Shown here: piece by piece, positions 32,136 to 54,067 of the stretch
Position numbering within the stretch: position 1 is the stretch's first letter
Layout: every line of letters begins with the position of its first letter
Assembly (NCBI GenBank): GCA_020723305.1
Contig: DYJC01000016.1
Coordinates: 2,650 to 66,649 of the forward strand
Reading direction: 5' to 3'
DNA from: Desulfosudis oleivorans
GTDB taxonomy: Bacteria > Desulfobacterota > Desulfobacteria > Desulfobacterales > SURF-7
Length of the DNA stretch: 64,000 nt
Notes under the pieces: model-generated
What the model was told of the DNA's origin: nothing
Database searches by the model: none
Seen by the model: only the letters and a program-made list of their open reading frames with translations
Program-made: the position numbers and the translations under genes

Positions 32136-32300
32136 TTTCGTATATGCGATTGCCCTGAAATAACCCTTGCTTCATGACCATTGGGGGAATCCTGATGATG
32201 CATTTCTATCAGTGATAGAATTAAAGGCAAACCCCTTGATCCTGGAATCGTTATATTGTACATGTAGTTTCCGAAAACAGAAAAAAATCAATAATACAGA

Positions 32301-32424
32301 TGAGCCAATTTCAAAACTATTATAAAGCGTCACACCAGCGAAAGTCAGTGCTCAGAAAAGAGCTGAAAATACTGGATTTTCGTTTTCGCCGGAACTACAA
32401 CAAGAGACTTTTGAAATTGGCTCA
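32301..32424 (-). repeat. MITE-like repeat, copy H (shortened)
   Basis: Termini TGAGCCAATTTCAAAAC ... CTTTTGAAATTGGCTCA. The core has a degenerate GTCACACC(A)GCGAAAG hairpin module. It ends 25 nt before the moxR start. Confidence 0.8.
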
Positions 32425-34323: not shown

Positions 34324-34337
34324 TGTTATACCCCCTG

Positions 34338-34407
34338 TTACACCCCCCTGGCCCCCCTCGAGGGGGGAATTGCCTCAAGGGGGGAATGCCATAAAAAGGG
34401 GGGATTT
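34338..34407 (+). repeat. C6/G6 palindromic repeat locus R1
   Basis: Core CACCCCCCTGGCCCCCCTCGAGGGGGGAAT at 34341-34370, followed by degenerate half-units (CTCAAGGGGGGAAT, AAAAGGGGGGATT). Confidence 0.85.
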
Positions 34408-34421
34408 ATGAGGAGTGTGTG

Positions 34422-35930
34422 ATGCCAAATACGACTGAGATCTCCGGGGTAATTCTGGCTGCAGGAAGAGGGATGCGTGCCTATCCGAAAACCAAATATA
34501 TCCCCAAAGCCCTTCTGGAAGTGGATGGAAAGCCGCTGATCGAGAGAAATATCGAAATCATGCGGGATCAGCTTGGGGTGAAAAAAATCATTGTTGTTGT
34601 CGGGCATTATGGCAACCAGATACCGGAATACCTCAATCAGAAAAATATGGGGGTTGATTTCAGCTTCGTGGTTCAGAAACAGCAGAAGGGTATTGGGCAT
34701 GCATTGCTGATGGTGGAAGAGCATATCAAGGAAAGCCGTTTTATCGTGATGCTTGCCGATGAATTCTACATGGACTCCAATCATCGGGACATCCTTACAA
34801 TAATGGATCAGGGTACGGAAGCGGATGCAGTGCTGCTGTTCAAGCAGGTTACCAATCCTTCCTTGATTTCCAAAAATTTTACCGGAAACATCCAGCAGGG
34901 AAGGGTAAAATCTCTGATCGAAAAACCGGAAAACCCGACAACCGATCTCCTGGGTGTCGGGACCTATTTATTGAATCAAAAGGTTTTTCACTATATCAAG
35001 CAGACACCTCCGTCCGAACTGAGGCAGGAGGTCGAGATCACGGATGTTCTGTCCAATATGGCCAGGCAGGAGGTGGTGATGGCCTGCATGCTGGAAGGCA
35101 AATACCTGAACGTGAACAACACCGATGATCTGAATCAGGCAAACTATCTGATCCGGGAAAAGATGTTTTCCAGATACAAGGTCAGTGTTGTGATTCCTGC
35201 CTATAATGAAGAAAAAACAATTGAGGGTGTGGTCCAGGATTTTAAAAGTCACGGGGTGGTGAATGAGGTTGTGGTTGTGGATAACAACTCCATGGATAGA
35301 ACCTCAGAGATAGCTGAAAAAGCCGGGGCACGGGTTGTTCTTGAAATGGATCAGGGATACGGGTGCGCATTGCGGAGGGGTCTTGACGAGGCTGCCGGAG
35401 ATATTATTATTCTCACAGAAGCCGATGGAACCTTTCGCTCCAAGGATGTTCCAAAGTTCATGGAATATCTCAAGGATTGTGACATGGTGATCGGTACCCG
35501 AACCACACGGCAGATGATCGAGCAGGGTACAAATATGAAGGGACTTGTACGCTGGGTCAATGTGATTTTCGGAAAAATTATTGAATTATTATGGTGGAAT
35601 CAGGAACCCCGGTTCACGGATGTCGGATGTACCTACCGGGCCATATGGAAATCCAGTTATCAGCGGATACGGCCTTTGCTCAGCGCCAGAGGGCCGGAGT
35701 TTGCTCCGGAGATGATGATTGCGGTGCTGATCTGCAAACAAAGAATTATTGAGATTCCGGTGTCCTATCTTCAGCGTCTGGGCGGAGAATCCAAGCACTC
35801 CGGCCGGTTTTCAGCACTGGCCCGGACAGCTTTTAAAATGATGAAGGTGATATTGAAGTATCGGTTTTTTGCCGGAATTGTTTCGGAGATTCAGGCCCGG
35901 TTTCATACAGGCAGGTTTGTGGGGAAATAG
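34422..35930 (+). CDS. Fusion of sugar-1-phosphate nucleotidylyltransferase and DPM1/GtrB-like GT2
   Basis: ATG 34422 has AGGAG 6 nt upstream. The N-half GVILAAGRGMRAYPKTKYIPKALLEVDGKPLIE is the nucleotidyltransferase signature. The C-half has VSVVIPAYNEEKTIEGVV, VVVVDNNSMDRT and ILTEADGTF, which are GT2 motifs. Confidence 0.75.
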   Translation: MPNTTEISGVILAAGRGMRAYPKTKYIPKALLEVDGKPLIERNIEIMRDQLGVKKIIVVVGHYGNQIPEYLNQKNMGVDFSFVVQKQQKGIGHALLMVEEHIKESRFIVMLADEFYMDSNHRDILTIMDQGTEADAVLLFKQVTNPSLISKNFTGNIQQGRVKSLIEKPENPTTDLLGVGTYLLNQKVFHYIKQTPPSELRQEVEITDVLSNMARQEVVMACMLEGKYLNVNNTDDLNQANYLIREKMFSRYKVSVVIPAYNEEKTIEGVVQDFKSHGVVNEVVVVDNNSMDRTSEIAEKAGARVVLEMDQGYGCALRRGLDEAAGDIIILTEADGTFRSKDVPKFMEYLKDCDMVIGTRTTRQMIEQGTNMKGLVRWVNVIFGKIIELLWWNQEPRFTDVGCTYRAIWKSSYQRIRPLLSARGPEFAPEMMIAVLICKQRIIEIPVSYLQRLGGESKHSGRFSALARTAFKMMKVILKYRFFAGIVSEIQARFHTGRFVGK

Positions 35931-35984
35931 GTTATCGGTTTTCGGTTGACGGTTTTCGGTTAGCCGGTTTGCCGGTTGATGTCT

Positions 35985-36125
35985 TGTGCTAATTTCAAAA
36001 GTCTGTTTTTGTCATTCCGGCGAAGGCCGGAATCCAGTGAAGTGAAGTGCTATCCAGTATTTTCAATTCTTTTCTGGACACCGGCCTTCGCCGGTGTGAC
36101 GTTTTTTAATTTTTGAAATTGGCTC
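35985..36125 (+). repeat. MITE-like repeat, copy A
   Basis: TGTGCTAATTTCAAAAG ... GTCATTCCGGCGAAGGCCGGAATCC ... GGACACCGGCCTTCGCCGGTGTGAC ... TTTTGAAATTGGCTC. Confidence 0.85.
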
Positions 36126-36154
36126 GTCTTATTTGATATTGAACTGTAAAAAAA

Positions 36155-37174
36155 ATGAAACGAATTTGGATCAGACAGGTTTTTTCTGTTTTTTGGATGA
36201 TTGTCGGTGTTATCTTACTGATTTCCTGTGTGGATGATAGCAGCCGGCAGGTTGTTGAAAAAGATCCTGGAATTGAAAAGCTGTATGAAAAAGGGTCAAT
36301 CCAGGTTATCCTTTCCATTGACAAGAGCCGGATGACAACCGCTGAACGTATCCGCCTTTCGCTGACTGCTTTTTCTGATGAAAACACTTCCATTCAGTGG
36401 CCTTCTTTGGAGCAGTTTTTAGGTCAATTCAAGATTTTTGATTATTCCACTGCCCAGCCGGAGCTGGATGATAAAAACCGGAAAAAAACCGTCCGGACAT
36501 ATGTTCTGGAACCGTTTCTGGCTGGGGAATATATCATTCCTTCCATGAAGATCACGTTCGGGAAGGAAAGAGAGGGCAGCAAGGATAAAAATGAACTTGT
36601 TTTAATTGAAACCCAAGAGATCACCATTCCTGTCAAATCCGTACTCCCGGATACCCGGATGGATCGGAAGCCGAATGATATTAAACCGCCGGTTGATATT
36701 CCGCGATCCTATGTTTTCTGGATCTGGGTGATTGCGATGGTTGTTCTTTTATTGATTGTCACGATTTTTTTGGTGATCTGGTTCCGGAAAAAGAAGAAGG
36801 GGAATGATGCCGGAGAAGTAAGGCTGTCTGCTCATGAGATTGCATTTCGTGAGCTATCGAACCTGGCCATACCAACACAAATGGAAAAAATGGAGATCAA
36901 ACTTTTTTATCAGAAAATATCCGATATCCTGAGAAGATATATCGAGAACCGGTTCGGGGTGAATGCACCGGATCAGACAACGGAGGAGTTCCTGACAGGG
37001 ATGGATTTCCGGAACATCATCGAGCCTTCCCATAAACCGCTTTTGCGGAATTTTCTGGCTCAATGCGACCTGGTTAAGTTCGCGGAACACCGGCCTGGGA
37101 AAGAGGATATTGAAGAATCCTTTAACAAGTGCAGACATTTTATCAACCAGACCAAAATAGAACAGAATTTGTAA
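36155..37174 (+). CDS. DUF4381-like membrane protein with extra N-terminal lipoprotein domain
   Basis: 339 aa. Lipoprotein-like signal (VILLISC) and a ~180-aa N-domain. A single TM helix FWIWVIAMVVLLLIVTIFLVIWF is followed by KKKKG and AHEIAFRELSNL, as in DUF4381. It occupies the usual slot between DUF58 and batA. Confidence 0.55.
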   Translation: MKRIWIRQVFSVFWMIVGVILLISCVDDSSRQVVEKDPGIEKLYEKGSIQVILSIDKSRMTTAERIRLSLTAFSDENTSIQWPSLEQFLGQFKIFDYSTAQPELDDKNRKKTVRTYVLEPFLAGEYIIPSMKITFGKEREGSKDKNELVLIETQEITIPVKSVLPDTRMDRKPNDIKPPVDIPRSYVFWIWVIAMVVLLLIVTIFLVIWFRKKKKGNDAGEVRLSAHEIAFRELSNLAIPTQMEKMEIKLFYQKISDILRRYIENRFGVNAPDQTTEEFLTGMDFRNIIEPSHKPLLRNFLAQCDLVKFAEHRPGKEDIEESFNKCRHFINQTKIEQNL

Positions 37175-37180
37175 CTGACC

Positions 37181-38239
37181 ATGCACTTTGAATCGCCATT
37201 ATCATTTCTTCTTCTGCTCCTAATACCTTTTCTTTTATGGATCAGGCATCGAAGGGCAAAACCAGGAACGATCCGTTTCCCCTCGATACAGCATGCCGTG
37301 AAAGCGGGAAAATCGATCCGCCGACAATGGGTCTGGGTTCCTTCATTTCTTCGGGTTCTTGCACTTGTTTTTCTGACAATTGCCCTGGCAAGGCCCCAGA
37401 CCGGCTCAGAGCAGGTTCGGGATATCACCCAGGGTATTGCCATTGAGATGGTTGTGGATCGATCCGGCAGCATGGGGCAGGAGATGGAATACCGGGGAGT
37501 CAAAACAAACCGGCTGGAGGTGGTAAAACAGGTATTCAAGGAATTTCTGCTGGGAAATGAGGATGACCTCAAGGGAAGACCAAGCGATCTCATTGGAATC
37601 ATCTCTTTTGCAAGGTACCCGGATACAACCTGCCCGTTGACCCTGGCTCATGGTGCGCTCTCTCCCTTTATCGACAGCATCAAACTGGTTCAGACACGGG
37701 AGGAGGACGGAACCGCCATTGGAGATGCGCTTGCACTGGCGGCCGCGCGTCTGGAAAAAGTGGATGAAACAGTTGCTCTCCAAAGACAACAGGGAAATGA
37801 CAGCTACACCATTAAAAGCAGGATCATCATTCTATTGTCCGACGGTGAAAACAACAGAGGAAAACGGACTCCTCTGGAAGCAGCCGCGCTGGCAGCAAAA
37901 TGGGGTATAAAGGTCTATACGATCGCTATCGGAGGGGAGGATTCGGGAACCTCCATTCAGACGCCGTTTGGTGTTTATACAATTCCAGGCGGGCAAGGCG
38001 TTGATACAGAATCTCTCAAAGCGATCGCAAAACAGACCGGAGGTTCTTTTTATCAGGCGGAAGATGAGAAATCCCTTCGATCCATATATGAAGAGATTGA
38101 TAAAATGGAAAAAACAGAAATTGAATCCATTAAATATATTGACTACAAAGAGGTTTTTCTTCCGTTTGTTTATATGACGCTTTTTCTGATCGGGCTTGAA
38201 ATTCTGTTACGGGAAACCATCTTCAGGAAGATACCATGA
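37181..38239 (+). CDS. batA: vWA-domain membrane protein BatA
   Basis: 352 aa with N-terminal TM helices, MIDAS VVDRSGSMG and a C-terminal TM helix. Operon position follows DUF4381. Confidence 0.8.
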   Translation: MHFESPLSFLLLLLIPFLLWIRHRRAKPGTIRFPSIQHAVKAGKSIRRQWVWVPSFLRVLALVFLTIALARPQTGSEQVRDITQGIAIEMVVDRSGSMGQEMEYRGVKTNRLEVVKQVFKEFLLGNEDDLKGRPSDLIGIISFARYPDTTCPLTLAHGALSPFIDSIKLVQTREEDGTAIGDALALAAARLEKVDETVALQRQQGNDSYTIKSRIIILLSDGENNRGKRTPLEAAALAAKWGIKVYTIAIGGEDSGTSIQTPFGVYTIPGGQGVDTESLKAIAKQTGGSFYQAEDEKSLRSIYEEIDKMEKTEIESIKYIDYKEVFLPFVYMTLFLIGLEILLRETIFRKIP

Positions 38240-39255
38240 CCGGACTGCATCTGAACAACATTGAACAGCTTCATTTTCTATGGGTTGTATTGCCCCTGAT
38301 CGCTGTTTATATTTATGGCTGGTATCGGCGGAAAAAGGCGCTTGGAGATTTCATCGAGGCAGGACTTCTTCATAAAGTCCATATTTCGGCAACCAGCGGG
38401 TTCCGGCATCGCAAAATGATTCTGCTCCTGATTGCCGTAATCATGCTTGTGATTTCCATGACCCGGCCGGCCTGGAATTTTAAATCCGAGCGGATTGAAC
38501 GAAAAGGCCGTGATGTTGTTTTCCTTCTGGATGTCTCAAAAAGCATGCTGGCCGAGGATCTTGTACCCAATCGCCTGGAGCGGGCAAAACTCGCCATCGG
38601 GGATTGCGTGGATCAGCTTCAGGGAGATCGGGTCGCCCTGGTGGCCTTTGCCGGAACAGCTGCTGTGAAATGCCCGCTCACCCTGGATTATGGATTTTTC
38701 CGGATGATGCTGGACAGGATATCGACCGACAGCATTGAAAGAGGGGGAACAATGATCGGTGATGCAGTTCGAATGATACTTGCCGAGGTTCTGGACAATC
38801 AGGAGAAGGAATTCAAGGATATCATCCTGATCACGGACGGCGAGGATCATGAAAGCTTTCCGGTCGAGGCGGCAAAACAGGCTGGTGAAAAAGGTATCCG
38901 GATCATCGCAATCGGCTTAGGGGATGAAACAGAGGGCAAGCGGATCCCCATAACAACCGAACAGGGAACTCAAAAATTTCTGACCTACAAAGGACAGGAG
39001 ATCTGGACAAAGCTGGACGCCGCAACCCTGCGAAAGATGGTTCGGGAAACCCCCGGAGGGAAATATCTGAATGTTGCAACCGGAACCATCGATCTGGGAA
39101 AAGTATATCTGGATCTTGTGGCATCAGCAGCCAAAAAGGATCTGGAATCGGAAACCATCAAACGGTATGAGGAAAAATTTCAGGTTTTTTTGGGTGTTGC
39201 TTTTATTCTGATTTGTGTTGAAATGATTATGAGAGTAAAAGCAAAAGATAATTAA
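38236..39255 (+). CDS. batB: vWA-domain membrane protein BatB
   Basis: 339 aa. FLLDVSKSMLAEDLVPNRLERAKLAI contains the vWA MIDAS motif. The start overlaps the batA stop (ATGA). C-terminal TM helix. Confidence 0.8.
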   Translation: MTGLHLNNIEQLHFLWVVLPLIAVYIYGWYRRKKALGDFIEAGLLHKVHISATSGFRHRKMILLLIAVIMLVISMTRPAWNFKSERIERKGRDVVFLLDVSKSMLAEDLVPNRLERAKLAIGDCVDQLQGDRVALVAFAGTAAVKCPLTLDYGFFRMMLDRISTDSIERGGTMIGDAVRMILAEVLDNQEKEFKDIILITDGEDHESFPVEAAKQAGEKGIRIIAIGLGDETEGKRIPITTEQGTQKFLTYKGQEIWTKLDAATLRKMVRETPGGKYLNVATGTIDLGKVYLDLVASAAKKDLESETIKRYEEKFQVFLGVAFILICVEMIMRVKAKDN

Positions 39256-39286
39256 TATTCCCCCCTATATAATTGTGTCACATATA

Positions 39287-39343
39287 TTCCCCCCTTGAGG
39301 GGGGCGAAGGGGGGTGTCCTTGAGGGGGAATTAAAGGGGGATG
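39287..39343 (-). repeat. C6/G6 palindromic repeat locus R2 (inverted core plus half-units)
   Basis: ATTCCCCCCTTGAGGGGGGCGAAGGGGGGTG is the reverse complement of the R1 core with a few changes. It is followed by CCTTGAGGGGGAATTAAAGGGGGATG. Confidence 0.8.
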
Positions 39344-39390
39344 TAAATACTATGGTTTTTTCCAAAAAGTTACTATCGTGAATGGCTCAA

Positions 39391-39420
39391 CACCCCCCTG
39401 GCCCCCCTCCAGGGGGGAAT
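39391..39420 (+). repeat. C6/G6 palindromic repeat R3
   Basis: CACCCCCCTGGCCCCCCTCCAGGGGGGAAT, 53 nt upstream of the DUF559 start. Confidence 0.85.
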
Positions 39421-39472
39421 AAAAAATAAAAAATTCCAAATACGATTACCCAGGGAACCGGAGGAGCAGCCC

Positions 39473-39937
39473 TTGATAAAAGGCATTATACCTTACAACC
39501 CTGAACTAAAAGAACCGGCAAGAGATCTTCGAAAAAACAGCACGCTTTCAGAAGTGTTGCTTTGGCAGCAAATTCAGAAAAGGCAGATAGGAGGATATAA
39601 ATTTTTACGTCAAAAGCCGATTCATAATTACATTGTTGATTTTTATTGTAAGGATCTCATGCTTGCAATTGAAATTGATGGAGATTCTCACAATGTTAAA
39701 ATGGATTCAGATAGAAGACGGCAGTGTGATTTGGAGTTGATTGGTATTCGGTTTTTGCGATTTCTGGATATTGATATTAAAAAGAATATGGAAGGGGTGT
39801 TGATCGCTATACATAAATGTATTGAAGGGATTGAGAAAGGGCTTTTTGATATTGGCAACTCGACATCTACTACACCCATTACACATATTACACCCCCCTG
39901 CGCCCCCCTCGAGGGGGGAATAAACAGCAGGAAGTAA
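39473..39937 (+). CDS. DUF559 endonuclease-domain protein (Vsr/restriction-endonuclease-like fold)
   Basis: TTG 39473 has GGAGGAG 6 nt upstream. ARDLRKNSTLSEVLLWQQIQKRQIGGYKFLRQKPIHNYIVDFYCKDLMLAIEIDGDSH...IRFLRF matches the DUF559 pattern. The last ~15 codons read through repeat R4. Confidence 0.8.
   Translation: MIKGIIPYNPELKEPARDLRKNSTLSEVLLWQQIQKRQIGGYKFLRQKPIHNYIVDFYCKDLMLAIEIDGDSHNVKMDSDRRRQCDLELIGIRFLRFLDIDIKKNMEGVLIAIHKCIEGIEKGLFDIGNSTSTTPITHITPPCAPLEGGINSRK
39891..39921 (+). repeat. C6/G6 palindromic repeat R4
   Basis: CACCCCCCTGCGCCCCCCTCGAGGGGGGAAT, in the same orientation as R3, overlapping the 3' end of the DUF559 ORF. Confidence 0.85.
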
Positions 39938-39970
39938 CTCAAGGGGGTATAAGCAGCCGGAAAGACTTTT

Positions 39971-40912
39971 GTGATGGATTTGAAAGTTCAAATAAAATTA
40001 TACATTAGAAAGACAAATTTTGCAGTTTTGCTTCTGCTTATCTTGATCCCCGGCCACGCCCTGGGAGAATCCGCAGCAGAGATTGTCAAAAGAGGCAATA
40101 CTGCCTATTCCCTTGGCAAGTATGATGAGGCTTTGTCTGCATATGATGAGGCGTATCAAAAAGCCCCGGAATCCTCCCGGATTTTGTTTAACAAGGGTAC
40201 GGCTTTTTATCAGGAAGGGGAGTATCCGAAAGCGATTGAGGCATTTCAGGAAGCGGAACAGAAATCCAAAGAGCCTTTGTTGAATGCTTATACCCGGTTT
40301 AATCTGGGAAACAGCTATTTTCAGGAGGCGGAGCAGAAAAAGCAGACTGATCCAAACAAGGCACTGGAGTCATATGGCAAGAGCATCTTGAATTATCAGG
40401 AAGCGCTTGAACTATCCCCTGATTTTACAGAATCTGCGGAAAATATTGAAATCGCAAGGCTGGCAATGAAATCCGTCCAGGATGAGATGAATAAGCAGCA
40501 GCAATCATCTGAACAACAGAAACAGGCTGCGGAAAAGCAGGAATCCAATCAGCCAGGGCAGGCCACTGAAAATCAGCAGCAGGCAGCGGAAAATTTGAAA
40601 AAAGCGCTGGATTCCTTACAAGATGACAGCAAAGACAAACAGCAGCAGAATTCGCCAAAAGAAGATCAACAGCAGGGAGAGAACCAGCAGGAACAGCAGA
40701 ATCAGCAGGAGCAGGGGAAACAACAACAGGAGCAAGGGAAACAAAAGCAGCAGGAAGGGGCTCAGCAGAAATCAGAAGAGATGACCCCGGAAAATCAAAA
40801 TAGTCAATTGTCGGATGATGCGCTGGATATCCTTGATGAGGAAAAAGAAAACTTGAAACATCGTAACATGATCCGGATGAATGGTGATCCGGGAGTTGAA
40901 AGAGACTGGTGA
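39971..40912 (+). CDS. batC: TPR protein BatC-like with Q/E-rich tail
   Basis: 313 aa (GTG 39971 or ATG 39974) with a signal-like N-terminus. TPRs include GNTAYSLGKYDEALSAYDEAYQ and GTAFYQEGEYPKAIEAFQEA. Long Gln/Glu/Lys low-complexity tail. Operon position. Confidence 0.65.
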   Translation: MMDLKVQIKLYIRKTNFAVLLLLILIPGHALGESAAEIVKRGNTAYSLGKYDEALSAYDEAYQKAPESSRILFNKGTAFYQEGEYPKAIEAFQEAEQKSKEPLLNAYTRFNLGNSYFQEAEQKKQTDPNKALESYGKSILNYQEALELSPDFTESAENIEIARLAMKSVQDEMNKQQQSSEQQKQAAEKQESNQPGQATENQQQAAENLKKALDSLQDDSKDKQQQNSPKEDQQQGENQQEQQNQQEQGKQQQEQGKQKQQEGAQQKSEEMTPENQNSQLSDDALDILDEEKENLKHRNMIRMNGDPGVERDW

Positions 40913-42789: not shown

Positions 42790-42828
42790 TTGGATGGAGT
42801 TGCTGTTTATGATTCCTGTTGAGTACTA

Positions 42829-43006
42829 CACCCCCCTGGCCCCCCTCGAGGGGGGAATTTTTAAGCGGGGAATCCTCGAGGGGGGGTTTTCAGGCGAAGA
42901 ATCCTAAAGGGAGAATTTTCAAGCGGGGGATCAATTCGCTCCTCAAGCGGATACCATAAGGTATTCCCCCCTTGAGGGGGGTGAAGGGGGGTGTCCCTTG
43001 AGGGAA
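42829..43006. repeat. C6/G6 palindromic repeat cluster R5
   Basis: A plus-oriented core at 42829-42858 is followed by a run of degenerate half-units (AAGCGGGGAATCCTCGAGGGGGGG, AAAGGGAGAAT, AAGCGGGGGATC). An inverted core ATTCCCCCCTTGAGGGGGGTGAAGGGGGGTG begins at 42963. Confidence 0.85.
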
Positions 43007-43101
43007 GACGCTGGTGGGTATTCTTGAGACGATCACATGGATGCCACTGAGAGAAAATTGAAAACCGGTATTTTTTAATAGAGAATTTAATTCCAGTATT
43101 T

Positions 43102-43989
43102 TTGGACATGAATGATACGCATGATCGAAACAAACCAGTAATCCGGAGAATGAAATTGAAGACCGCATTGTCTGTATGCTTATGTGTGTTTTTGTTTGCT
43201 GTCTTTTTCACAAAACCCCTGCCGGCCCAATCCCTTGACACGGCCGAGGTGATGGAACTCTATCGTCAGGCCCGGGAGATGTTCCGGCAGGCAAATGAAC
43301 TGGCCACTTCTGATCCGGATCAGGCAGAACAGCTTTATCGGAATTCTGCAATGCGGTTTGAGAAAATTGTCCGGCAGGGAGGAATCCGGAACGGGGAAAT
43401 ATTTTATAATATCGGGAATGCCTATTTTAAAATCAGTGATATCGGACGAGCGATCCTGAATTACAAGCGGGCAGCGCTTTTTATTCCCAATGATTTGAAT
43501 CTGAGACAGAATTTGCAATTTGCCAAAGCCCGGCGAATTGACCGGATTGAGGAGCCTCAGAGAATGCAGGTTTTAAAGATTCTGTTTTTTTGGCATTATG
43601 ACCTGTCTTCTCATACCCGGATGATTCTTTTTACCGTTTTTTTTATTCTGTTCTGGGTTTTTGCCGGTTTCCGGTTATTTTTTTCAAAATCGTTTTTAAA
43701 CTGGCTGATTCTTTTTTTAGCAGGATTTTCATTCCTGTTTCTGGGGTCACTGGCCATCGATACGATTTATCATTATAACCGGGAGCCGGGGGTTATTATC
43801 AATCATGAGGTTATTGCCCGAAAAGGGGACAGCATATCCTATGAGAGCAGTTTTAAAGAACCGCTTCATCCCGGAACCGAATTTACCTTGATTGAAAAAA
43901 GAGGAAGCTGGTATTATATCGAACTTCCGGATTTCAGAAGATGCTGGGTTCCTGAGGCCGATGTCGAACTGGTGATGTCCAATCTGTAG
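43102..43989 (+). CDS. batE: BatE-like TPR / membrane / SH3b protein
   Basis: 295 aa. TPRs (IFYNIGNAYFKISDIGRAILNYKRA), three TM helices and a C-terminal SH3b-like GSWYYIELPDFRRCWVPEADVELV. The start is uncertain (43102 TTG, 43108 or 43150 ATG). Confidence 0.6.
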   Translation: MDMNDTHDRNKPVIRRMKLKTALSVCLCVFLFAVFFTKPLPAQSLDTAEVMELYRQAREMFRQANELATSDPDQAEQLYRNSAMRFEKIVRQGGIRNGEIFYNIGNAYFKISDIGRAILNYKRAALFIPNDLNLRQNLQFAKARRIDRIEEPQRMQVLKILFFWHYDLSSHTRMILFTVFFILFWVFAGFRLFFSKSFLNWLILFLAGFSFLFLGSLAIDTIYHYNREPGVIINHEVIARKGDSISYESSFKEPLHPGTEFTLIEKRGSWYYIELPDFRRCWVPEADVELVMSNL

Positions 43990-44130
43990 AGCCAGTTTCA
44001 AAACGCCCCATTTTGGCCAATCTCGGCGTTGGGCTCAAATTTTAATCCTCGAAATACTCAATGTATTACTGCGGTTAAAATTTTCGCCCGCCTTGATCTT
44101 GACCAAACTGAAACGTTTTGAAATTGGCTC
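43989..44130. repeat. MITE-like repeat, copy I (same termini, different core)
   Basis: GAGCCAGTTTCAAAACG ... CGTTTTGAAATTGGCTC termini. The core lacks the CCGGCGAA hairpin modules but is itself roughly palindromic. Confidence 0.7.
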
Positions 44131-44421
44131 TATAAATTATTTGTGAATTCATCGAAATTATCCTTGAATTAAAAAATCTTTTGAATTAAGAAAAATATTA
44201 GGCAGATAAGTGAATTTCATTTGCCATGACATCGGCTTTCGTCTACTGTGTTTCAAGAATCTAAAATACAAATAATGTGGATTTTTGTCATTGTTCGATA
44301 GCGGTCTTCAAAACTCATATCCACAAGATATTTTACGAATACTTATTCTTTTTTTCATTCAGACGAATCGATATTTTGATCAAGAATCTAAGGTGCTCAT
44401 TTAACAATAACAGGGAAAAAA

Positions 44422-46581
44422 ATGCCTAAACCAAAGAATCAACCTGTGAATTTGAAAGTCGGGGAATTACTGAAAATGGAAGGGTTTGTCCAGGATGATC
44501 AGATTCAAAAAGCCCTGGAGATTCAGGAAAATGAAATTTTAATGGCCCGTCTGCCTGTTGAAGAATATATGCTGAAAAAAAAGCTTCTCACCAAAGTTCA
44601 GTTTGATAAACTCAAAGAGCATCCGGAGTATGGCAAATTTACAGCAGATCAGCTCGCATATAAGCTGAACATCATCAGCAAAAAAAATCTGGATGAAATC
44701 CAGAATCGAAGGAACCTGCAGCGGAGTATTGGTGAGATCCTTTGTGAAATGGGTACCATTACAACAAATGATCTGAATCATATTCTTCAGAAATACAGCA
44801 AGCATCAGAAATTTGGTGAAATCCTGTTACGGCAGGATTTTATTAATGAAGTCAACCTCAACATCGCTCTTCGAGAACAGACTCACCGGACAGATCCTCT
44901 GGGCAAAATACTTGTCCAGAAAAAGTTTATTACGGTTGATCAGCTATATCAGGTATTATCCAAACAATACAATATCCCCTACCGGAAGCTTGACGGATTT
45001 GTCGTCTATGACAATCAGATTGAGAAACTTATCAATATTGTCGGGTATCGATATGCCAAAAAAAATATGATCATCCCTTTGATGCTTGAGGATAATACGC
45101 TTACCCTGGCTGTCTCCTCTCCGGAGAAACTGGCTGTCGTTCATGAACTCGCTTATGTGTATACCCATCTGAAATTAAAATGCATATTTGTTTCCGAAGA
45201 AAAGTTTGATGAACTTTTTGAAACCCTATACGGGGTTGCCATCAAAGCATCAAAAGCTGCTGCGGATGATCGTTCCAGAAAAGAGACCGTCAGTCTTATC
45301 GATATCGATCTTGGAGAAGATACCGGCGATACAAGGGATACCAAATCCGGTAACATCTATGGAACCACCACCATAGAGGCGGAAGAGGTTGTTAATTTCA
45401 TTATCAAATACGGCATCAGTAACAATGCCAGCGATATTCATATTGAACAGAATCGGAAAAAGCCGAAAATCCGGTACCGGATTGACGGTATTCTCCAGAC
45501 ACTCAAGCTTGCATGGCTGGATGAACGGATCAATGAAATGATCGGCGCCATTATTTCCCGGATCAAGGTGATTTCAAACCTTGATATTGCAGAGCGGAGG
45601 ATGCCTCAGGATGGCGTGTTCCGGGTAAACTATTTTGATCGGGAAAAAAAACAGGGATTTGATCTGGATTTCCGGGTGGCGACCTGTCCGGCAATCATTG
45701 GTGAAAATGTTACCTTAAGAATCCTTGATTCCCGAAAAGCCGATGTCGGACTGGATCGCCTTAATCATTCGGCCCATGTTCTGGAGCCATTCAAAAACAC
45801 CTTGAAAAGTTCAGCAGGAATGGTGCTGGTTTCCGGACCGACCGGTAGCGGAAAAACCTCGACACTGTATGGCGCCCTGATGCATATCAACAATCCCGGG
45901 GTCAAAATTATTACGGCAGAAGATCCGATTGAATACAGTTTCCCGGATATCATGCAGACCCAGATCAATCCAAAGATCAATTTAACCTTTGCAAAACTTC
46001 TGCGCTCCTTTTTACGTTTTGATCCGGACATCATTCTTGTGGGAGAGATGCGGGATAAGGAAACCGCGAGCATTGGTTTTGATGCAGCGTTGACCGGTCA
46101 TCTTCTGCTCAGCACGATTCATACCAATGATGCGGTGAGTGCTGTTACACGACTTCTTGACCTTGGGATCGAGCACAATCAGATGGCATCGAGCCTTATG
46201 GCTGTAATGGCGCAACGTCTTGTAAGGACAACCTGCCTGTCATGCAAAAAGGAGTACACTCCCCAAAAAGAGGAGTGGATGCTTTTGTTTGACAAATACC
46301 CTGAACATCTGTCCTTTTTTATGGGCGAAGGGTGTGAAGAATGCAAGTTTACCGGGTACAAAGGCAGAACACTGATTTCTGAAATTTTCGTTGTGGACCG
46401 GAATGTTTCCCTTGCCTTGAATCGGGGGGAAAATGAAAATGAAATCCGTCGGATTGCGCTGAAAGGGGGAATGAAAACCATGCTGGATGACGGAATCATG
46501 AAACTCAATCAAACAACCCTGGAAGAGCTGATCCGGGTGGTGCCCCATGAAATGCTGAAGGAGTTTAAAGCAAGAAAATGA
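44422..46581 (+). CDS. GspE/PilB/MshE-family secretion ATPase with extended N-terminus
   Basis: 719 aa with Walker A GPTGSGKTST, Walker B ILVGEMRD and tetra-Cys CLSC...CEEC. A ~300-aa N-extension carries four MshEN-like 24-residue motifs. Confidence 0.85.
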   Translation: MPKPKNQPVNLKVGELLKMEGFVQDDQIQKALEIQENEILMARLPVEEYMLKKKLLTKVQFDKLKEHPEYGKFTADQLAYKLNIISKKNLDEIQNRRNLQRSIGEILCEMGTITTNDLNHILQKYSKHQKFGEILLRQDFINEVNLNIALREQTHRTDPLGKILVQKKFITVDQLYQVLSKQYNIPYRKLDGFVVYDNQIEKLINIVGYRYAKKNMIIPLMLEDNTLTLAVSSPEKLAVVHELAYVYTHLKLKCIFVSEEKFDELFETLYGVAIKASKAAADDRSRKETVSLIDIDLGEDTGDTRDTKSGNIYGTTTIEAEEVVNFIIKYGISNNASDIHIEQNRKKPKIRYRIDGILQTLKLAWLDERINEMIGAIISRIKVISNLDIAERRMPQDGVFRVNYFDREKKQGFDLDFRVATCPAIIGENVTLRILDSRKADVGLDRLNHSAHVLEPFKNTLKSSAGMVLVSGPTGSGKTSTLYGALMHINNPGVKIITAEDPIEYSFPDIMQTQINPKINLTFAKLLRSFLRFDPDIILVGEMRDKETASIGFDAALTGHLLLSTIHTNDAVSAVTRLLDLGIEHNQMASSLMAVMAQRLVRTTCLSCKKEYTPQKEEWMLLFDKYPEHLSFFMGEGCEECKFTGYKGRTLISEIFVVDRNVSLALNRGENENEIRRIALKGGMKTMLDDGIMKLNQTTLEELIRVVPHEMLKEFKARK

Positions 46582-46722
46582 GCCGGTTCCAGAAGTCTCT
46601 TGTTGTCATTCCGGTAAAGACCGGAATCCGGAGAAATGAAGTGCTATCCAGTATTTTCAGTTCTTTTCTGGACACCGGCCTTCGCCGGTGTGACGGTTTT
46701 TAATAGTTTTGAAATCAGCGCA
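46579..46722 (+). repeat. MITE-like repeat, copy B
   Basis: TGAGCCGGTTCCAGAAG ... GTCATTCCGGTAAAGACCGGAATCC ... GGACACCGGCCTTCGCCGGTGTGAC ... TTTTGAAATCAGCGCA. Its first three bases are the stop codon of the upstream ATPase gene. Confidence 0.85.
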
Positions 46723-46752
46723 AATGACTACTCTTTTTTGAACGGAGCGAAT

Positions 46753-48591
46753 TTGAAAAAAGCGGATGAGATATCATCAACTGAAAAGCTTCTCCATGTA
46801 ATCCGAAAAGGAAATGAAACCAGCCTGAAGGAATCCGGAGAAGCCGGAGATGATTTTATCGATCAGGAATTCAAGCCATCACTCTATACCATCGTTCCAT
46901 TCAAAAAAAAGATAACACTCAGCATCATTATCGGCAATCATGATCTCATGCTCGTCCTGATCAGCCGGATATCCGACCAGGACTGGAGTCTTCTGGATCG
47001 GAAAAGAGTTGTCTTTTCCCCGCAAATGAAAAAGGATTACAAACCGTTTTCTGTTTTTCTCCGGTCATCCATTTTACAGTTTCTGGAAGGCCGAAAGCCG
47101 GACTATATCTGGAGTACCATCCCCTCTACGAAAATTGAAACACGTTTCCTCACCATTCCAAAGGTGTCCTCCAGTCAGATACCCAAAGTTGCCTATTTTT
47201 CCTTTACCAAAATCAATCCAACCAATGGGGAGGATTTGCTTTTTGACTTTGAGATCTTGGGTGAAGTTTCTCAGGGAGGCGCTCAGAAACTACAGTTGTT
47301 TGCCTATACTGCATTTTCCAAGGAGGTTGACAATCTTCGGAAACTGTTTGTCGGAATAGGCTTGCCTCTTACCGGCATTTCCATTGTTCCGTTTGCAATG
47401 CAGAATCTTTTCAGAAGCAAGCTTCTGGGCAATCTGCCGGCAAATATATGTACCCTGTATGTGGGCAAGGACTGGTCCCGCATAGATATTTTTTCAAAAG
47501 GGAATCTTGTCCTGTCTCGGGATATCAAGACAGGGATCAACAGTCTTATCGAAGCAGTGAAGGGCCGGACAGAGAGAGAAATCCAAGAGGATGAACCGGA
47601 TAATAACCATCCGTACCTGGAAGATAAGGAGTTTTTAGAAAAATTTTTCAAAGACCTTTCCATCCGTGGCGCTGAAACCGGTCAGGGCATGAGTTCCGGC
47701 ACCCTGAACCATGCCGGTATGCTGGAGATGATTATCCCGGTAATCCGGAGACTGGTTCGACAGGTTGACAGAACATTTGAGCATTTTACCGTTAATTTTG
47801 ATCATGAACCCATCGGGAAAATTTTTATTACCGGAGATCTTTGCGCACATCCGCAAATCATTGATCTGATCAGTCAGCAGTTGAATTTTGATATTGATTG
47901 TATCGATCCTTTTTCAACCGGTATTGTCCGCATAAAAAAAAATCAGATACCCGATACAGTAGCGGAGAAGGATTCTTTTGCTCCGGCAATGGGTCTTGCT
48001 GTTTCAAATAACAACCGGACTCCGAACCTTCTTTACACTTACTTACAAAAAGGAATCACATCCAGAATTCAGAAAATCAATCAATATGTATTTATGGCTT
48101 TTCTGGCTGCCATGTCTGCCGGTATTGTTTTTTTTTACTGGCAGGATCATGCCATGAAGTTGAAAAAAGAGCGGATTGATCGATTGCATGTTCAGCTCGA
48201 GAACTTCAATCCTCTGGTTGAAAAAAAACTGATTCTTCAGATGGCTTCGGTTCTGGATAATGAAAGAAAGGAAAATGTTTGCCAGGCAGAAAGGTGTCTG
48301 GGCCTGGTGATGCTCTCTGAACTGGCTAGCAGAACTCCGGAAAATATCCGTCTATTAAAAATGGATGCTCAGTTTTTTAAAGATCCTTCCGAACCCGGCA
48401 AGAACAAACTTCTGCTGATCGAGGGAGCTGTCTTTCAGAGGAGTACTCCGGCGGATGCGGATCTGGCTGTTTATTTAATTCAACTTGGAAAATCTCCAAT
48501 TTTCAAACAGGTCAGCATAAGAGAAAAGTCGATTCAGATGATGAACGGTGAAAAAGTTTTGAAATTTATTGCGAAACTGGAATCTGTGTAA
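46753..48591 (+). CDS. PilM-PilN fusion (MshI/GspL-like) pilus assembly protein
   Basis: Track ORF 46636..48591 begins inside MITE B and has no ATG before codon 105. TTG 46753 is proposed because GGAG lies 5 nt upstream. The N-half is PilM-like. A TM helix YVFMAFLAAMSAGIVFFYW is followed by a coiled-coil/periplasmic part. Confidence 0.6.
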   Translation: MKKADEISSTEKLLHVIRKGNETSLKESGEAGDDFIDQEFKPSLYTIVPFKKKITLSIIIGNHDLMLVLISRISDQDWSLLDRKRVVFSPQMKKDYKPFSVFLRSSILQFLEGRKPDYIWSTIPSTKIETRFLTIPKVSSSQIPKVAYFSFTKINPTNGEDLLFDFEILGEVSQGGAQKLQLFAYTAFSKEVDNLRKLFVGIGLPLTGISIVPFAMQNLFRSKLLGNLPANICTLYVGKDWSRIDIFSKGNLVLSRDIKTGINSLIEAVKGRTEREIQEDEPDNNHPYLEDKEFLEKFFKDLSIRGAETGQGMSSGTLNHAGMLEMIIPVIRRLVRQVDRTFEHFTVNFDHEPIGKIFITGDLCAHPQIIDLISQQLNFDIDCIDPFSTGIVRIKKNQIPDTVAEKDSFAPAMGLAVSNNNRTPNLLYTYLQKGITSRIQKINQYVFMAFLAAMSAGIVFFYWQDHAMKLKKERIDRLHVQLENFNPLVEKKLILQMASVLDNERKENVCQAERCLGLVMLSELASRTPENIRLLKMDAQFFKDPSEPGKNKLLLIEGAVFQRSTPADADLAVYLIQLGKSPIFKQVSIREKSIQMMNGEKVLKFIAKLESV

Positions 48592-49139
48592 TGGCAAAGG
48601 CACTAAAAATAGACAGGCTGCCCAAACTACCCAAGAGAAGTTTTATCTATTTGCTGATCTGCGGAGGAGGGATATTTCTGTTCTGCCTTATTGGCATTTA
48701 TCCAAATTTCAAAGAAATATCCTCCCTTGATGATGAAATAACGATTCTGAATCAAAAGATCAGTGAACAGGAAATACTGTTTCCGGTGTTCAAAAAAATG
48801 TTGTCACGAATCAAACAATCCACCCATTTGAAGGGCAGAGAGGACACACGTGAAAAACTGAAAACAGAGGATATCGCCGCCTTTTCAGATATTATCGGAG
48901 GGTTTTCACAAAAAAATGATCTGAGTATTCATGAAAATACCATTGATATCCGCAAATTTAAGGAAAAGGGTGGATTTCTGGAGATGAATTATTCAATGCA
49001 AGGGGAGCTGGATGATTTCCGAATATTTATTATCCAGATGATGGCCTTGCCCTATGATATTCGAATCGGTCGGCTTGAGATTGAGCCGGTATCTGAGCAG
49101 AAAGCTTTTCAGCTTCGCATTTGGGTGGCGCTGAAATAG
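48591..49139 (+). CDS. PilO/MshJ/GspM-like bitopic assembly protein
   Basis: 182 aa with TM helix FIYLLICGGGIFLFCLIGIY followed by a coiled coil. The ATG overlaps the upstream stop (TAATG). Called by architecture and position only. Confidence 0.45.
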   Translation: MAKALKIDRLPKLPKRSFIYLLICGGGIFLFCLIGIYPNFKEISSLDDEITILNQKISEQEILFPVFKKMLSRIKQSTHLKGREDTREKLKTEDIAAFSDIIGGFSQKNDLSIHENTIDIRKFKEKGGFLEMNYSMQGELDDFRIFIIQMMALPYDIRIGRLEIEPVSEQKAFQLRIWVALK

Positions 49140-49177
49140 CCGGTTTGCCCTTCGACCGGCACATCATGGAATTTATA

Positions 49178-49320
49178 TGGGTTAATTTCAAAACGTTCCA
49201 AAGCGTCACACCGGCGAAAGCCGGTGTCCAGAAACATACTGAAAATACTGGATAGCGCTACGCTTCACTGCGTGTCCGGCTTTCGCCGGAATGACAAAAC
49301 AGACTTTTGAAACTGGCTCA
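49178..49320 (-). repeat. MITE-like repeat, copy C
   Basis: Inverted orientation: TGGGTTAATTTCAAAACG ... GTCACACCGGCGAAAGCCGGTGTCC ... GTCCGGCTTTCGCCGGAATGAC ... CTTTTGAAACTGGCTCA. Confidence 0.85.
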
Positions 49321-49399
49321 TATGAGTTGCCTTTTTACGGACATGTCATTTTGATGAAAGAGTAACAATCTGGATCTATAAGTCGGTGTTTATACACAA

Positions 49400-49882
49400 A
49401 TGAGTAGACGGGAAAAAATAATTGTCGTTGCCATGATCCTTGCCGTCGTATTGGGAGGGTTCAACTTCCTTGGGAAGCCTCCCGATCCTTTACTTGTCGG
49501 CAAGGAACAGCATATCAATGAGTTGAACCAGTTTATTGCAAAAGCAATTTCTCAATTGAATGATAATGGCGGCAAGGTTTCGGAGTATATCCTGAAAACA
49601 GCATCGCTCAAATTGGATAAAGATCCGTTTCTGAAAATGGAAGCGAAAAAAGCATCGGTTCCGGAGCAAAAAAGTTCAATCGCAGAAAAGGATGAACAGA
49701 CGTTGCATTATTCGGGATATCTTCAGTTGGGCCATAAAAACATTGCGATAATCAATGGATATGAGTATGAAAACGGAGATGCAATGGAATCCCTTGGCTA
49801 TATTGTTCAACAGATTACGCCTGAAAAGGTGATTCTGGAATCAATGGGGAAAGAAAAGATCATTCTTCTTATTGAAGAATAA
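49400..49882 (+). CDS. Small bitopic protein, PilP/MshK/GspC-like candidate
   Basis: 160 aa with TM helix IIVVAMILAVVLGGFNFLG and a beta-rich C-terminus YSGYLQLGHKNIAIINGYEYENGD...VILES. It sits directly before the secretin gene. Confidence 0.35.
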   Translation: MSRREKIIVVAMILAVVLGGFNFLGKPPDPLLVGKEQHINELNQFIAKAISQLNDNGGKVSEYILKTASLKLDKDPFLKMEAKKASVPEQKSSIAEKDEQTLHYSGYLQLGHKNIAIINGYEYENGDAMESLGYIVQQITPEKVILESMGKEKIILLIEE

Positions 49883-49897
49883 GGGTTTAAACCGTAC

Positions 49898-49931
49898 CAC
49901 ACCCCCCTTAATCCCCCCTCAAGGGGGGAAT
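49898..49931 (+). repeat. C6/G6 palindromic repeat R6
   Basis: CACACCCCCCTTAATCCCCCCTCAAGGGGGGAAT, followed by the half-unit CCCCAAGGGAGAAT. Confidence 0.8.
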
Positions 49932-53750: not shown

Positions 53751-53891
53751 TGAGTTACTTTCAAAACGATGAAAAACCGTCACACCGGCGAAGGCCGGTG
53801 TCCAGAAAAGAATTGAAAATACTGGATAGCACTTCATTTCTCTGGATTCCGGCCTTCGCCGGAATGACAACAGACTTTTGAAATTGGCTCA
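53751..53891 (-). repeat. MITE-like repeat, copy D
   Basis: TGAGTTACTTTCAAAACG ... GTCACACCGGCGAAGGCCGGTGTCC ... ATTCCGGCCTTCGCCGGAATGAC ... CTTTTGAAATTGGCTCA. Confidence 0.85.
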
Positions 53892-53944
53892 CTTACTTGT
53901 TGTTTTATCAAGTTTGATGGTTTCGTAAAAAAAGTTTATTTTTT

Positions 53945-54017: not shown

Positions 54018-54067
54018 GGAATGAGGACATTTTATGAGTTCATCAAGCCTGCAAGGTAGAAAAAACC

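Follow-up and report, generated by a model that had tools for sequence, protein, structure and literature searches.

What are the short C- and G-rich repeats that interrupt the bat and type IV pilus genes of the Desulfosudis oleivorans contig DYJC01000016.1, and what spreads them? The stretch of 64,000 nucleotides analysed here (referred to as the window) had been proposed, in an original prediction made from its letters, to carry a family of short units centred on a C6-TCGA-G6 palindrome and resembling repetitive extragenic palindromic (REP) sequences. On the evidence given below, we consider it probable (about 60%) that these C6/G6 units are the cis elements, namely the inverted end-repeats, of a small cassette encoding a DUF559 nuclease, and that the units found singly or in pairs without a gene are non-autonomous copies. 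The DUF559 nuclease may be the enzyme that spreads these repeats.

A search of the window with the 16-mer CCCCCCTCGAGGGGGG, allowing up to two mismatches, gave seven matches (positions 34352, 39289, 39402, 39903, 42840, 42966 and 49913), compared with a chance expectation of 0.02 in dinucleotide shuffles of the window, none of which reached seven. This confirmed the six loci originally reported, the difference in number arising because one of them (42829-43006) holds two units. Three of the centres are perfect 16-bp palindromes and four have one mismatch (TTGA twice, TCCA and TCAA once each), exactly the variants that had been listed. The palindrome is present as claimed, but as the defining centre of the repeat it is incomplete: the unit consists of three blocks, as it includes another C6 run that appears as a mirror G block when the opposite strand is read. 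The consensus of 31-33 nt is ACA-C6-T(2-4 nt)-[C6-TCNA-G6]-AAT, and five units lie in forward and two in reverse-complement orientation. On the G-rich strand each unit runs from a C-arm (CCCCCCT) through a loop of 2-4 nt to a G-arm (AGGGGGG), followed by a spacer of 3-5 nt and the third block, GGGGGGT, the mirror image of the G-arm with A swapped for T. A strict three-block finder, set to demand a perfect hairpin (6 nt or longer) together with a mirror block free of mismatches, returned exactly these seven units and nothing else over the 64 kb.

All seven units are located between 34.3 and 49.9 kb, with none in the remaining 48 kb, and each is placed either in a spacer between same-strand genes of the bat operon and the type IV pilus block or at the 3' end of the DUF559 open reading frame (ORF), as the original prediction had described (Table 1). 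The genes of the bat block, all on the plus strand, encode in order MoxR, DUF58, an NTP-transferase/GT2 fusion, a BatD-like protein, BatA, BatB, DUF559, a TPR protein (BatC), BatD and a further TPR protein; the pilus block that follows, likewise on the plus strand, comprises PilB, PilM, two small genes, PilQ and further pilus genes. The trailing degenerate half-units that had been noted are real: TCAAGGGGGGAAT-like half-units follow several copies and form at 42844-42925 an array with a 29-nt period and 2.8 copies (Tandem Repeats Finder, TRF). The whole insertion containing F1 extends from about 34324 to 34418; besides the unit it contains a C5 run at 34331 and G6 runs at 34379 and 34398, and in the RNA fold prediction three C-runs are nested against three G-runs. 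Degenerate half-units continue beyond R1 to ~39340, and positions 39257-39266 carry a partial ATTCCCCCCT. In five of its six frames the unit can be read through without a stop. Tandem arrays of partial units (loop, G-arm and AAT...), with periods of 26-31 nt and up to 7.4 copies, were observed extending outward from forward units both in the window (42844-42925 and 34368-34403) and in other genomes (L215 10432-10626; L001 6339-6700 and 7256-7440); they may have been left by slippage, or by copying that was repeatedly aborted, at the end of the element.

Table 1. Repeat units, the DUF559 gene and other features of the window (positions in the 64,000-nt stretch)
Feature	Position	Strand	Context
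Forward unit F1, ACACCCCCCTGGCCCCCCTCGAGGGGGGAAT	34340-34370	+	DUF58 / NTP-transferase spacer
Reverse unit R1, ATTCCCCCCTTGAGGGGGGCGAAGGGGGGTGT (plus-strand reading: C-arm, loop, G-arm, spacer, mirror G block)	39286-39317	-	Upstream end-repeat of the DUF559 cassette
Forward unit F2, TCCA loop variant	39390-39420	+	52 nt 5' of the DUF559 start codon
DUF559 gene, 154 aa, predicted Vsr-like PD-(D/E)xK nuclease	39473-39937	+	Pfam PF04480
Forward unit F3	39890-39921	+	Downstream end-repeat of the DUF559 cassette, overlapping the ORF 3' end
Forward unit F4	42828-42858	+	Directly past the BatD stop codon, then tandem degenerate half-units at 42844-42925
Reverse unit R2	42963-42994	-	Pairs with F4 as a gene-less forward...reverse doublet (REPIN/BIME-like)
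Forward unit F5, TTAAT spacer and TCAA loop	49899-49931	+	Between a 160-aa pilus-block gene and pilQ
NTP-transferase and GT2 glycosyltransferase fusion, 503 aa	34419-35930	+	Embedded in the bat (MoxR-DUF58-BatA/B/C/D) operon
Truncated IS66 remnant, 272-aa ORF	18072-18890	-	IS66 Orf2 (TnpB_IS66) fused to the N-terminal ~110 residues of the IS66 DDE transposase; low-GC left half
Copies of the ~140-bp palindrome	32298-32424, 35976-36130, 46587-46715, 49184-49320, 53759-53891 (+53930-54018), 57084-57228, 60995-61142		

DUF559 proteins are small, nuclease-like and widespread; no function is assigned to the family, of which YcjD of Escherichia coli is a member. The 154-aa ORF between batB and batC matched the Pfam family with E = 3.9e-29 (101.2 bits, cutoff 20.6), and a profile of five DUF559 proteins matched, among the structures of the PDB, 3HRL ('endonuclease-like protein') with E = 2e-29 and the catalytic domain of I-Bth0305I (3R3P) with E = 6e-7. 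I-Bth0305I belongs to the EDxHD family of Vsr-like homing endonucleases, with active-site residues that can be superimposed on those of Vsr (PMC3239194). Five residues, D56, E67, D69, H73 and D80, are invariant in the DUF559 alignment, and this set of acidic and histidine residues, together with the nuclease homology, makes a DNA-cleaving or nicking activity plausible. The gene is enclosed in a cassette at 39286-39921 with R1 and F2 upstream and F3 lying on its last codons, the final ~15 of which (..TPPCAPLEGGINSRK) are encoded by the unit itself and give the protein a Pro/Gly-rich tail. No exact copy of the window protein was on record. Many homologs of other phyla (Brocadiaceae, KSB1, Parcubacteria; among P0121-P0240) were seen to align over 95-99% of the window protein, including the unit-encoded tail, and thus translation of a forward unit as the C-terminus appears widespread; many of the genes concerned are on contigs shorter than 2 kb.

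In order to place the unit beyond the window, 185,579 species genomes were searched with CCCCCCT-N1-5-CCCCCCT-NN-AGGGGGG, the flanks not being required. The motif, for which the original prediction had proposed a census, is not confined to the window, since at least 120 loci were found elsewhere in many phyla. All DUF559 genes present in the first 120 loci are bracketed by inverted three-block units of their own sequence type, namely C6 units in L060, CCCCCTCTCTGC... units in L076, a perfect 38-bp inverted repeat with CCTCCCCT/AGGGGAGG/GGAGGGGT in the Magasanikbacteria locus L040, and arrays of CCCC-TAAAT-CCCCC-A-GGGGGG in L001. No remnant DUF559 fragments were found near the other motif loci.

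An independent sample consisted of 80 metagenome DUF559 loci encoding proteins 40-62% identical to that of the window (the YcjD-like subfamily), with same-sized pseudo-genes placed 650-1000 bp away within the same loci as controls. When the upstream flank was compared with the reverse-complemented downstream flank, 46 of 66 DUF559 loci scored above the 99th percentile of shuffles, i.e. flanking inverted repeats were present in 70% of the loci but in only 1.2% (1/85) of the controls (Fisher p = 1e-21). A strict unit was found within 250 bp of the gene in 55/71 DUF559 loci versus 2/85 controls, and the earlier hint of an association with DUF559 genes proved both correct and general. The arrangement is oriented, with reverse units (C-G-G) upstream in 39 loci and forward units (C-C-G) downstream in 39, the opposite forms in 8 and 13, respectively, and both expected orientations together in 25; forward-gene-reverse cassettes also exist (L060, L076 and L001). 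The cassettes are tiny, with AATT...AATT outer ends and ...ATGT/ACAT... inner ends, and in many of the metagenome loci the forward unit lies on the stop codon as it does in the window. In at least ten arm sequences the third block obeyed the mirror rule (A to A/T) and not that of a direct repeat (GGAGGGG>GGGGTGG, AGAGGGG>GGGGTGT, GGAAGGG>GGGATGG, GAGGGGA>AGGGGTG and AGGGGAGG>GGAGGGGT among them). This co-variation is evidence that the triplex-type geometry itself is what is conserved, and that the three-block geometry is under selection. Protein and unit co-vary as well, protein identity being 0.60 within a unit family and 0.51 between families (permutation p = 0.0005). A link between DUF559 and repeats of this kind was not found in the open-access literature searched, including the 26 papers there in which DUF559 is named, although an earlier description elsewhere is possible.

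In an earlier survey, 'DUF559 domain-containing protein' was enriched, with an odds ratio of 14, among genes overlapped by inverted repeats, and these were read as targets of programmed inversion (Milman et al. 2023, PMC9881135). The inverted units could accordingly be recombination sites for phase variation of the DUF559 gene, and they do overlap the ORF end. Yet no invertase or recombinase gene is adjacent, the same units occur solo or paired far from any DUF559 gene, and flipping the whole compact cassette would not obviously alter its product, so that programmed inversion is very improbable as the role of these repeats.

The same architecture was found in a cultured organism. In the isolate Desulfoferrobacter suflitae, whose DUF559 protein is 61% identical to that of the window, a reverse unit, AAATCCCCCCTTGAGGGGGGAAGGGGGGTGT, ends 3 nt 5' of the DUF559 ATG, and a forward unit, ACACCCCCCTAACCCCCCTCAAGGGGGGAAT, covers the stop codon and is followed by a 26-nt half-unit array of 7.4 copies. 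About 400 nt further on lie a second reverse unit and a truncated 5' fragment of DUF559. The surroundings of this cassette (L214/L215 1259-19429) look like a defence island, with genes for a SNF2 helicase, a 1558-aa Eco57I-type methylase, DUF3800, a 2098-aa DEAD/MZB helicase and UvrD, and with a 55-aa ORF, the second reverse unit and the DUF559 fragment in between.

Comparison with close relatives revealed that units come and go at the junctions studied. BatB of the window is 85% identical to a protein from 'MAG: Desulfobacteraceae bacterium' (MAG, metagenome-assembled genome), and the 85% relative L131 carries one unit in 21 kb as against seven in the syntenic 16 kb of the window. Three of the four window junctions are empty in L131, as shown by the gene overlaps or the short spacer there: batB and batC overlap, with neither a DUF559 gene nor units between them; batD overlaps the next gene, without the F4-R2 units; and the spacer before pilQ is only 31 nt long and lacks F5. 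At the fourth, the DUF58/NTP-transferase junction (J1), L131 has a shorter orthologous copy of F1, and in the 96% relative L130 the two genes overlap in an ATGA without any unit. The units thereby explain insertions of ~100-700 bp in bat and pilus operons where relatives have overlapping genes, as well as the Pro/Gly-rich DUF559 tail and the breaks of public assemblies in the bat region. As to the latter, the short-read contigs L121 and L130 (Logan assemblies SRR13164373 and ERR14790948) end exactly inside R1, downstream of batB, which is consistent with a high unit copy number in those genomes.

Among the matches of the genome search, the ACA...AAT flanks recur in at least six phyla (Desulfobacterota, Bacteroidota, Patescibacteria, Ignavibacteriota, Hydrogenedentota and, partly, Nitrospinota), isolates included. 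Hosts of the flanked unit among the matches listed are Desulfobacteraceae, Syntrophobacteraceae, Cytophagia, Saprospirales, Ignavibacteria, Hydrogenedentota and a Magasanikbacteria MAG, with Arenibacter and Nibribacter as isolates, and Bacteroidales possess a sister subfamily of the form C6-TG-C6-TAAA-G6. Some genomes account for 5-9 loci each among the matches listed, forward...reverse and reverse...forward pairs both occur with spacers of 15-140 nt, and roughly two in three copies fall outside long ORFs. Inside apparently intact genes, an in-frame unit was seen in a GDP-mannose 4,6-dehydratase of Algoriphagus sp. oki45 (L027 4244-4268), where it is translated as the loop ...SPLKGGQGGV..., and further in-frame genic units were seen in L119, L039, L056, L046 and L108. 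All-against-all clustering of the 2566 ORFs around the units of the 120 listed loci yielded nothing beyond generic families (ABC transporter, ECF sigma factor, sigma-54 activator, oxidoreductase and the like), none of which was present in more than seven of the 120. The exact string of the unit was not found in the searched open-access literature. Two candidate carriers were rejected: phages, because the unit matched only eight times in 2.9 million viral contigs, and an autonomous element between distant inverted units, the 3-kb interval in question (L020) being the nuo operon.

The location of the units could also mean that they are not mobile DNA at all, and serve the host either as RNA hairpins stabilizing or punctuating operon mRNAs or as DNA structures modulating supercoiling or replication. 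All window copies do lie between co-transcribed genes, five of seven in sense orientation, hairpins are predicted for them, and REP elements are credited with such roles (PMC3733652). Across genomes, by contrast, sense and antisense units in co-directional spacers stand at 16:16, which argues against an RNA-strand-specific role, and no T-run terminator was seen after the window units. Moreover, close relatives function without the units and have overlapping genes at the same junctions, copies elsewhere lie in frame inside genes, and the related E. coli PIT elements showed neither promoter nor terminator activity in functional tests (Hoyne & Maher, as summarized in PMC4666352). A host-beneficial function is therefore improbable.

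The three-block layout is that of a known repeat class. The 'BoxC' repeat of E. coli, which corresponds to the later PIT (potential intrastrand triplex) elements and to 'TMECO', has the consensus CCCTCNCCC-N3-6-GGGNGAGGG-N3-GGGNGAGGG (Holder 2015, PMC4666352; BoxC and PIT go back to Bergler 1992 and Hoyne & Maher 2000/2002, as cited there). TMECO is present in 23 copies in K-12, all intergenic, several in inverted pairs and without strand bias, and 3610 copies were counted across 262 proteobacterial genomes; its loci are more rearranged between strains, and formation of an intrastrand purine-motif triplex in vitro was shown by circular dichroism (CD), nuclear magnetic resonance (NMR) and dimethyl sulphate (DMS) footprinting (PMC4666352). 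Members of the triplex motif (TM) class are defined by a C-rich pyrimidine stem, a 1-6 nt loop, a complementary purine stem, a second 1-6 nt loop and a third block, which mirrors the purine stem through G·G:C and A/T·A:T triads (PMC4666352). All seven window units fit this layout (CCCCCCT / AGGGGGG / GGGGGGT, 7/7 triads, loops of 2-4 nt, spacers of 3-5 nt) and match the class II/III motifs of Holder et al. 2015 (PMC4666352). The distribution of the class, with many conserved intergenic copies, close inverted pairs and copy numbers varying among relatives, fits the family too. The window stems of 6-7 nt fall within the search range of 6-15 nt at a size that is common in scrambled genomes, stems of at least 8 nt being clearly non-random (PMC4666352); for the window family, non-randomness rests on copy number (7 vs 0.02 expected) and not on stem length. 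TMECO itself was ruled out as the identity of the window units, their homopolymer arms not being the TMECO consensus, to which a perfect match was seen only at the E. coli control locus beside ycjD. By its sequence, the C6/G6 family is a new, homopolymer-arm member of the BoxC/PIT/TM triplex repeat class, and its geometry is predicted to let single-stranded DNA form a hairpin together with an intrastrand triplex of the purine motif, for which the mirror-rule co-variation over at least ten arm sequences is indirect support.

The original assignment to a second REP-like family thus stood in part. The units are dispersed, mostly intergenic and separate from the ~140-bp palindrome of the window (see below), but they are of the BoxC/PIT/TM class. 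The REP tag, a GTAG or CGTC that stays unpaired at the base of the palindrome (PMC3733652), is absent from the units, whose flanks are ACA (5') and AAT (3') in the window and in most copies across genomes, and no RAYT (REP-associated tyrosine transposase, the Y1 transposase of PF01797) was found in the 64-kb window or among the families enriched near units. If the units were nevertheless an ordinary REP/REPIN family (REPIN, REP doublet forming a hairpin) moved by a RAYT, a Y1 HUH transposase, encoded elsewhere, the DUF559 neighbour would be a coincidence. The copies are indeed short, G+C-rich, palindromic, intergenic and found in inverted doublets, and they resemble REP, BIME (bacterial interspersed mosaic element) and REPIN sequences as portrayed in PMC2817692, PMC3116915 and PMC3733652. 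Apart from the missing tag, the three-block mirror is not a REP feature, the only transposase trace in the window is the IS66 remnant, no non-generic family is enriched near the units, and the DUF559 association of 55/71 versus 2/85 is far too strong for chance; we hold this explanation to be quite improbable.

The class assignment leads to E. coli itself. In K-12, ycjD, which adjoins fabI, is the only annotated DUF559 gene in its region, and a perfect type-A TMECO (CCCTCGCCC-CTCTG-GGGAGAGGG-TTA-GGGTGAGGG) lies 168-202 nt downstream on the same strand. The ycjD stop codon is overlapped by a degenerate unit, and a ~50-nt duplicate of the 3' coding end of ycjD is present between this degenerate unit and the TMECO (L212 3041-3407; K-12 1351040-1351406). 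With 23 TMECOs in 4.6 Mb, the chance of finding one this near ycjD is ~0.5% by our estimate. The ycjD region is found in 3375 of 5426 complete E. coli genomes and is missing from 38%; a clean empty site was not found, O157:H7 (L217) having an 8-kb RND/MFS efflux island at the sapF-fabI junction. Holder and co-authors stated that transposase or integrase remnants were 'never found' near TM motifs, and ycjD and DUF559 are not mentioned by them (PMC4666352). We would put it at somewhat below even odds that DUF559 proteins (YcjD-like, of the Vsr fold) are the missing partner enzymes of BoxC/PIT repeats and form with them a second, independently evolved nuclease-repeat system comparable to RAYT-REPIN, in which a PD-(D/E)xK nuclease would recognize the hairpin- or triplex-forming three-block unit and drive its spread and horizontal transfer across phyla. 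If true, this would give a function to a large domain-of-unknown-function family, an E. coli y-gene included, and to repeats that have been unexplained since the early 1990s. The association found here joins the two puzzles, the role of BoxC and the function of DUF559, into a single hypothesis in a tractable organism, namely that YcjD cuts or mobilizes BoxC.

The structures predicted for the units were examined in silico. The very stable hairpins originally expected were not borne out for single units, whose predicted folding energy as single-stranded DNA is only -8 to -11 kcal/mol (z = -1 to -3), one G-run being contested by two C-runs. Inverted doublets with a long hairpin, a REPIN-style trait, are present: the R1...F2 pair forms a hairpin of 135 nt, the segment 39280-39425 folding at -73.9 kcal/mol (z = -4.6), and further pairs occur in other genomes. 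The G-runs had also been thought to support G-quadruplexes in the 42.8-43.0 kb cluster, and the family might act through these. With loops relaxed to 12 nt, three patterns did appear, overlapping or adjoining the reverse units and the 42.8-kb cluster, but none of the window copies contains a canonical motif (loops of up to 7 nt), and solo forward units have one G-run on the plus and two on the minus strand. Furthermore, the neighbouring complementary C-runs favour hairpins, and the heteropolymer relatives (GGAGGGG/GGGGTGG) follow the triplex mirror rule and not a four-tract rule; action via G-quadruplexes is barely credible. Neither the window nor the sets of 18 motif loci and 20 DUF559 loci gave any Rfam match that reached the gathering threshold. 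The best match at R2 was Whalefall-1 (RF01762; 18.5 bits, threshold 37, at 42961-43009), and a known RNA family was rejected, as the weak Whalefall-1, mir-2545 and BLV_package matches merely reflect C/G hairpins.

How the DUF559 cassette and its units could spread may be pictured by analogy with RAYT-REPIN systems and Vsr-like homing endonucleases, on which the following scheme is modelled. The autonomous form would be a cassette of one DUF559 nuclease gene (~115-150 aa) within inverted units, exemplified in the window by 39286-39921, and the window copies at 34340, 42828/42963 and 49899 would be non-autonomous. The nuclease would recognize its cognate unit, either folded or as duplex, and nick or cut there, and repair of the break or replication would then place copies of units, or of the entire cassette, at new intergenic positions. 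Units would subsequently persist as selfish DNA, giving rise to local expansion and to the differences between close relatives. The data show how the units are built and distributed, that they are shared across phyla and differ between relatives, that they are linked to DUF559 in geometry and in statistics, and that protein and unit family co-vary. We infer recognition and cutting of the units by DUF559, the chemistry of the cleavage, copying driven by this cutting and the route of insertion.

Alternatively, the DUF559 gene could be a homing-type passenger that inserts between pre-existing reverse-forward pairs, the units themselves being generated and spread otherwise, for example by replication slippage at structured DNA, recombination or another enzyme. 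DUF559 is homologous to the homing endonuclease I-Bth0305I, gene-less reverse...forward pairs with spacers of 27-93 nt would then be the 'empty' alleles, the bias towards reverse units upstream and forward units downstream fits a gene inside a split palindromic site, and the tandem half-unit arrays suggest slippage-type growth. The homology arms, however, would be only ~30 bp long, a filled and an empty allele at one locus were not found as a pair, the forward-gene-reverse cassettes of L060, L076 and L001 do not fit, and the identity of the 31-nt unit across phyla is unexplained unless units travel with the gene. A passenger gene is unlikely, but it is the main alternative to the cassette reading.

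Several observations weigh against the DUF559 cassette as the source of the units. A DUF559 gene was detected (tblastn, 8-kb loci) in only 4 of the 120 listed motif loci, so most copies are far from any nuclease gene, which is expected for non-autonomous copies and is also compatible with no functional link. The closest homologs of the window protein, 82-83% identical, occupy the same batB|batC site in relatives; the cassette is therefore not a recent arrival and has been immobile for some time. No consistent target-site duplication was found at the cassette ends in 36 loci, which have AATT...AATT termini, and the 9-bp TATG(T)GATG duplication at J1 in L131 is ambiguous, as the empty L130 allele does not fit a simple duplication. 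The layout at ycjD differs from the canonical reverse-gene-forward order, and E. coli strains without ycjD still carry BoxC-like matches. Finally, with the sample limited to proteins of 40-62% identity, the link is shown for the YcjD-like part of Pfam DUF559. Origin from a DDE-type element as a MITE (a transposable element of the miniature inverted-repeat type) was also considered and rejected: the pairs do have inverted ends, but no consistent target-site duplication was found, and the only gene-bearing version encodes DUF559, not a DDE transposase.

Other features of the window were noted in passing. The second, unrelated repeat family is a ~140-bp palindromic, MITE-like element with at least seven intergenic copies of 82-92% identity and a further occurrence in the Desulfocicer MAG locus L068. 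It gave sub-threshold matches on both strands to the Rfam family WsnRNA46 (37 bits, threshold 65), and the spacer holding the copy at 35976 is ~120 nt shorter in L130. The NTP-transferase/GT2 fusion within the bat operon is retained in both L130 and L131 and thus belongs to the operon of this lineage and is not a recent insertion. The G+C content steps up near position ~32000, from ~0.35-0.42 in the left half, where polysaccharide and glycosyltransferase genes lie on mixed strands, to ~0.44-0.50 in the right half, which contains all C6/G6 units.

Among known systems, REP/BIME/REPIN-RAYT is similar in that short structured repeats are dispersed intergenically as singlets and inverted doublets, and RAYT genes are flanked by their REPs with REPINs around them (PMC2817692, PMC3116915, PMC3337134). 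The DUF559 system shares with it a small nuclease gene, in one or few copies, that is itself flanked by cognate inverted repeats, a repeat sequence that co-varies with the enzyme lineage, and several enzyme-repeat pairs per genome, as in the MAG PFL1 with two DUF559 genes and two unit families (L060 and L076). Unlike RAYTs, DUF559 proteins have a Vsr-like PD-(D/E)xK and not an HUH/Y1 fold, and the activity of the DUF559-unit pair is so far inferred from sequence; unlike REPs, the unit is a mirror-plus-inverted motif of three blocks and not a simple imperfect palindrome with a GTAG/CGTC tag, and whereas REP families are usually lineage-specific, the identical C6 unit is shared across phyla. With I-Bth0305I the DUF559 proteins have in common a homologous catalytic domain and a small selfish nuclease gene associated with mobile DNA, but they lack its N-terminal NUMOD/helix-turn-helix (HTH) DNA-binding region, and in contrast to the intron or intein setting of that enzyme the window gene stands by itself between batB and batC, with structured inverted repeats on its flanks. 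In-frame insertion into genes is known from Rickettsia palindromic elements and from small mobile sequences of enterobacteria (PMC2759123, PMC2229807), which the unit resembles through its open frames and its copies inside apparently intact genes; at ~31 nt it is, however, much shorter than these elements (100-170 bp), and the window copies are extragenic save for the DUF559 tail.

As in BoxC/PIT/TMECO, a C-rich arm is followed after a short loop by its G-rich complement and, past a spacer of ~3 nt, by another G(T)-rich block mirroring the purine arm; the units are ~31-37 nt long and intergenic, with many highly conserved copies and frequent close inverted pairs; and copy numbers vary between related strains at rearrangement-prone loci, without strand bias relative to genes. 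The window units differ from TMECO, which has 9-nt CCCTCNCCC arms, by their C6/G6 arms, whose 6-7 nt are near the shortest stems admitted by the ITxF search, and by their hosts, which are Desulfobacterota, Bacteroidota and others in place of the Proteobacteria and Cyanobacteria of the TMECO class. Whereas mobility genes were reported by Holder et al. never to be found near their motifs, the units described here bracket DUF559 genes, and ycjD of E. coli is among them.

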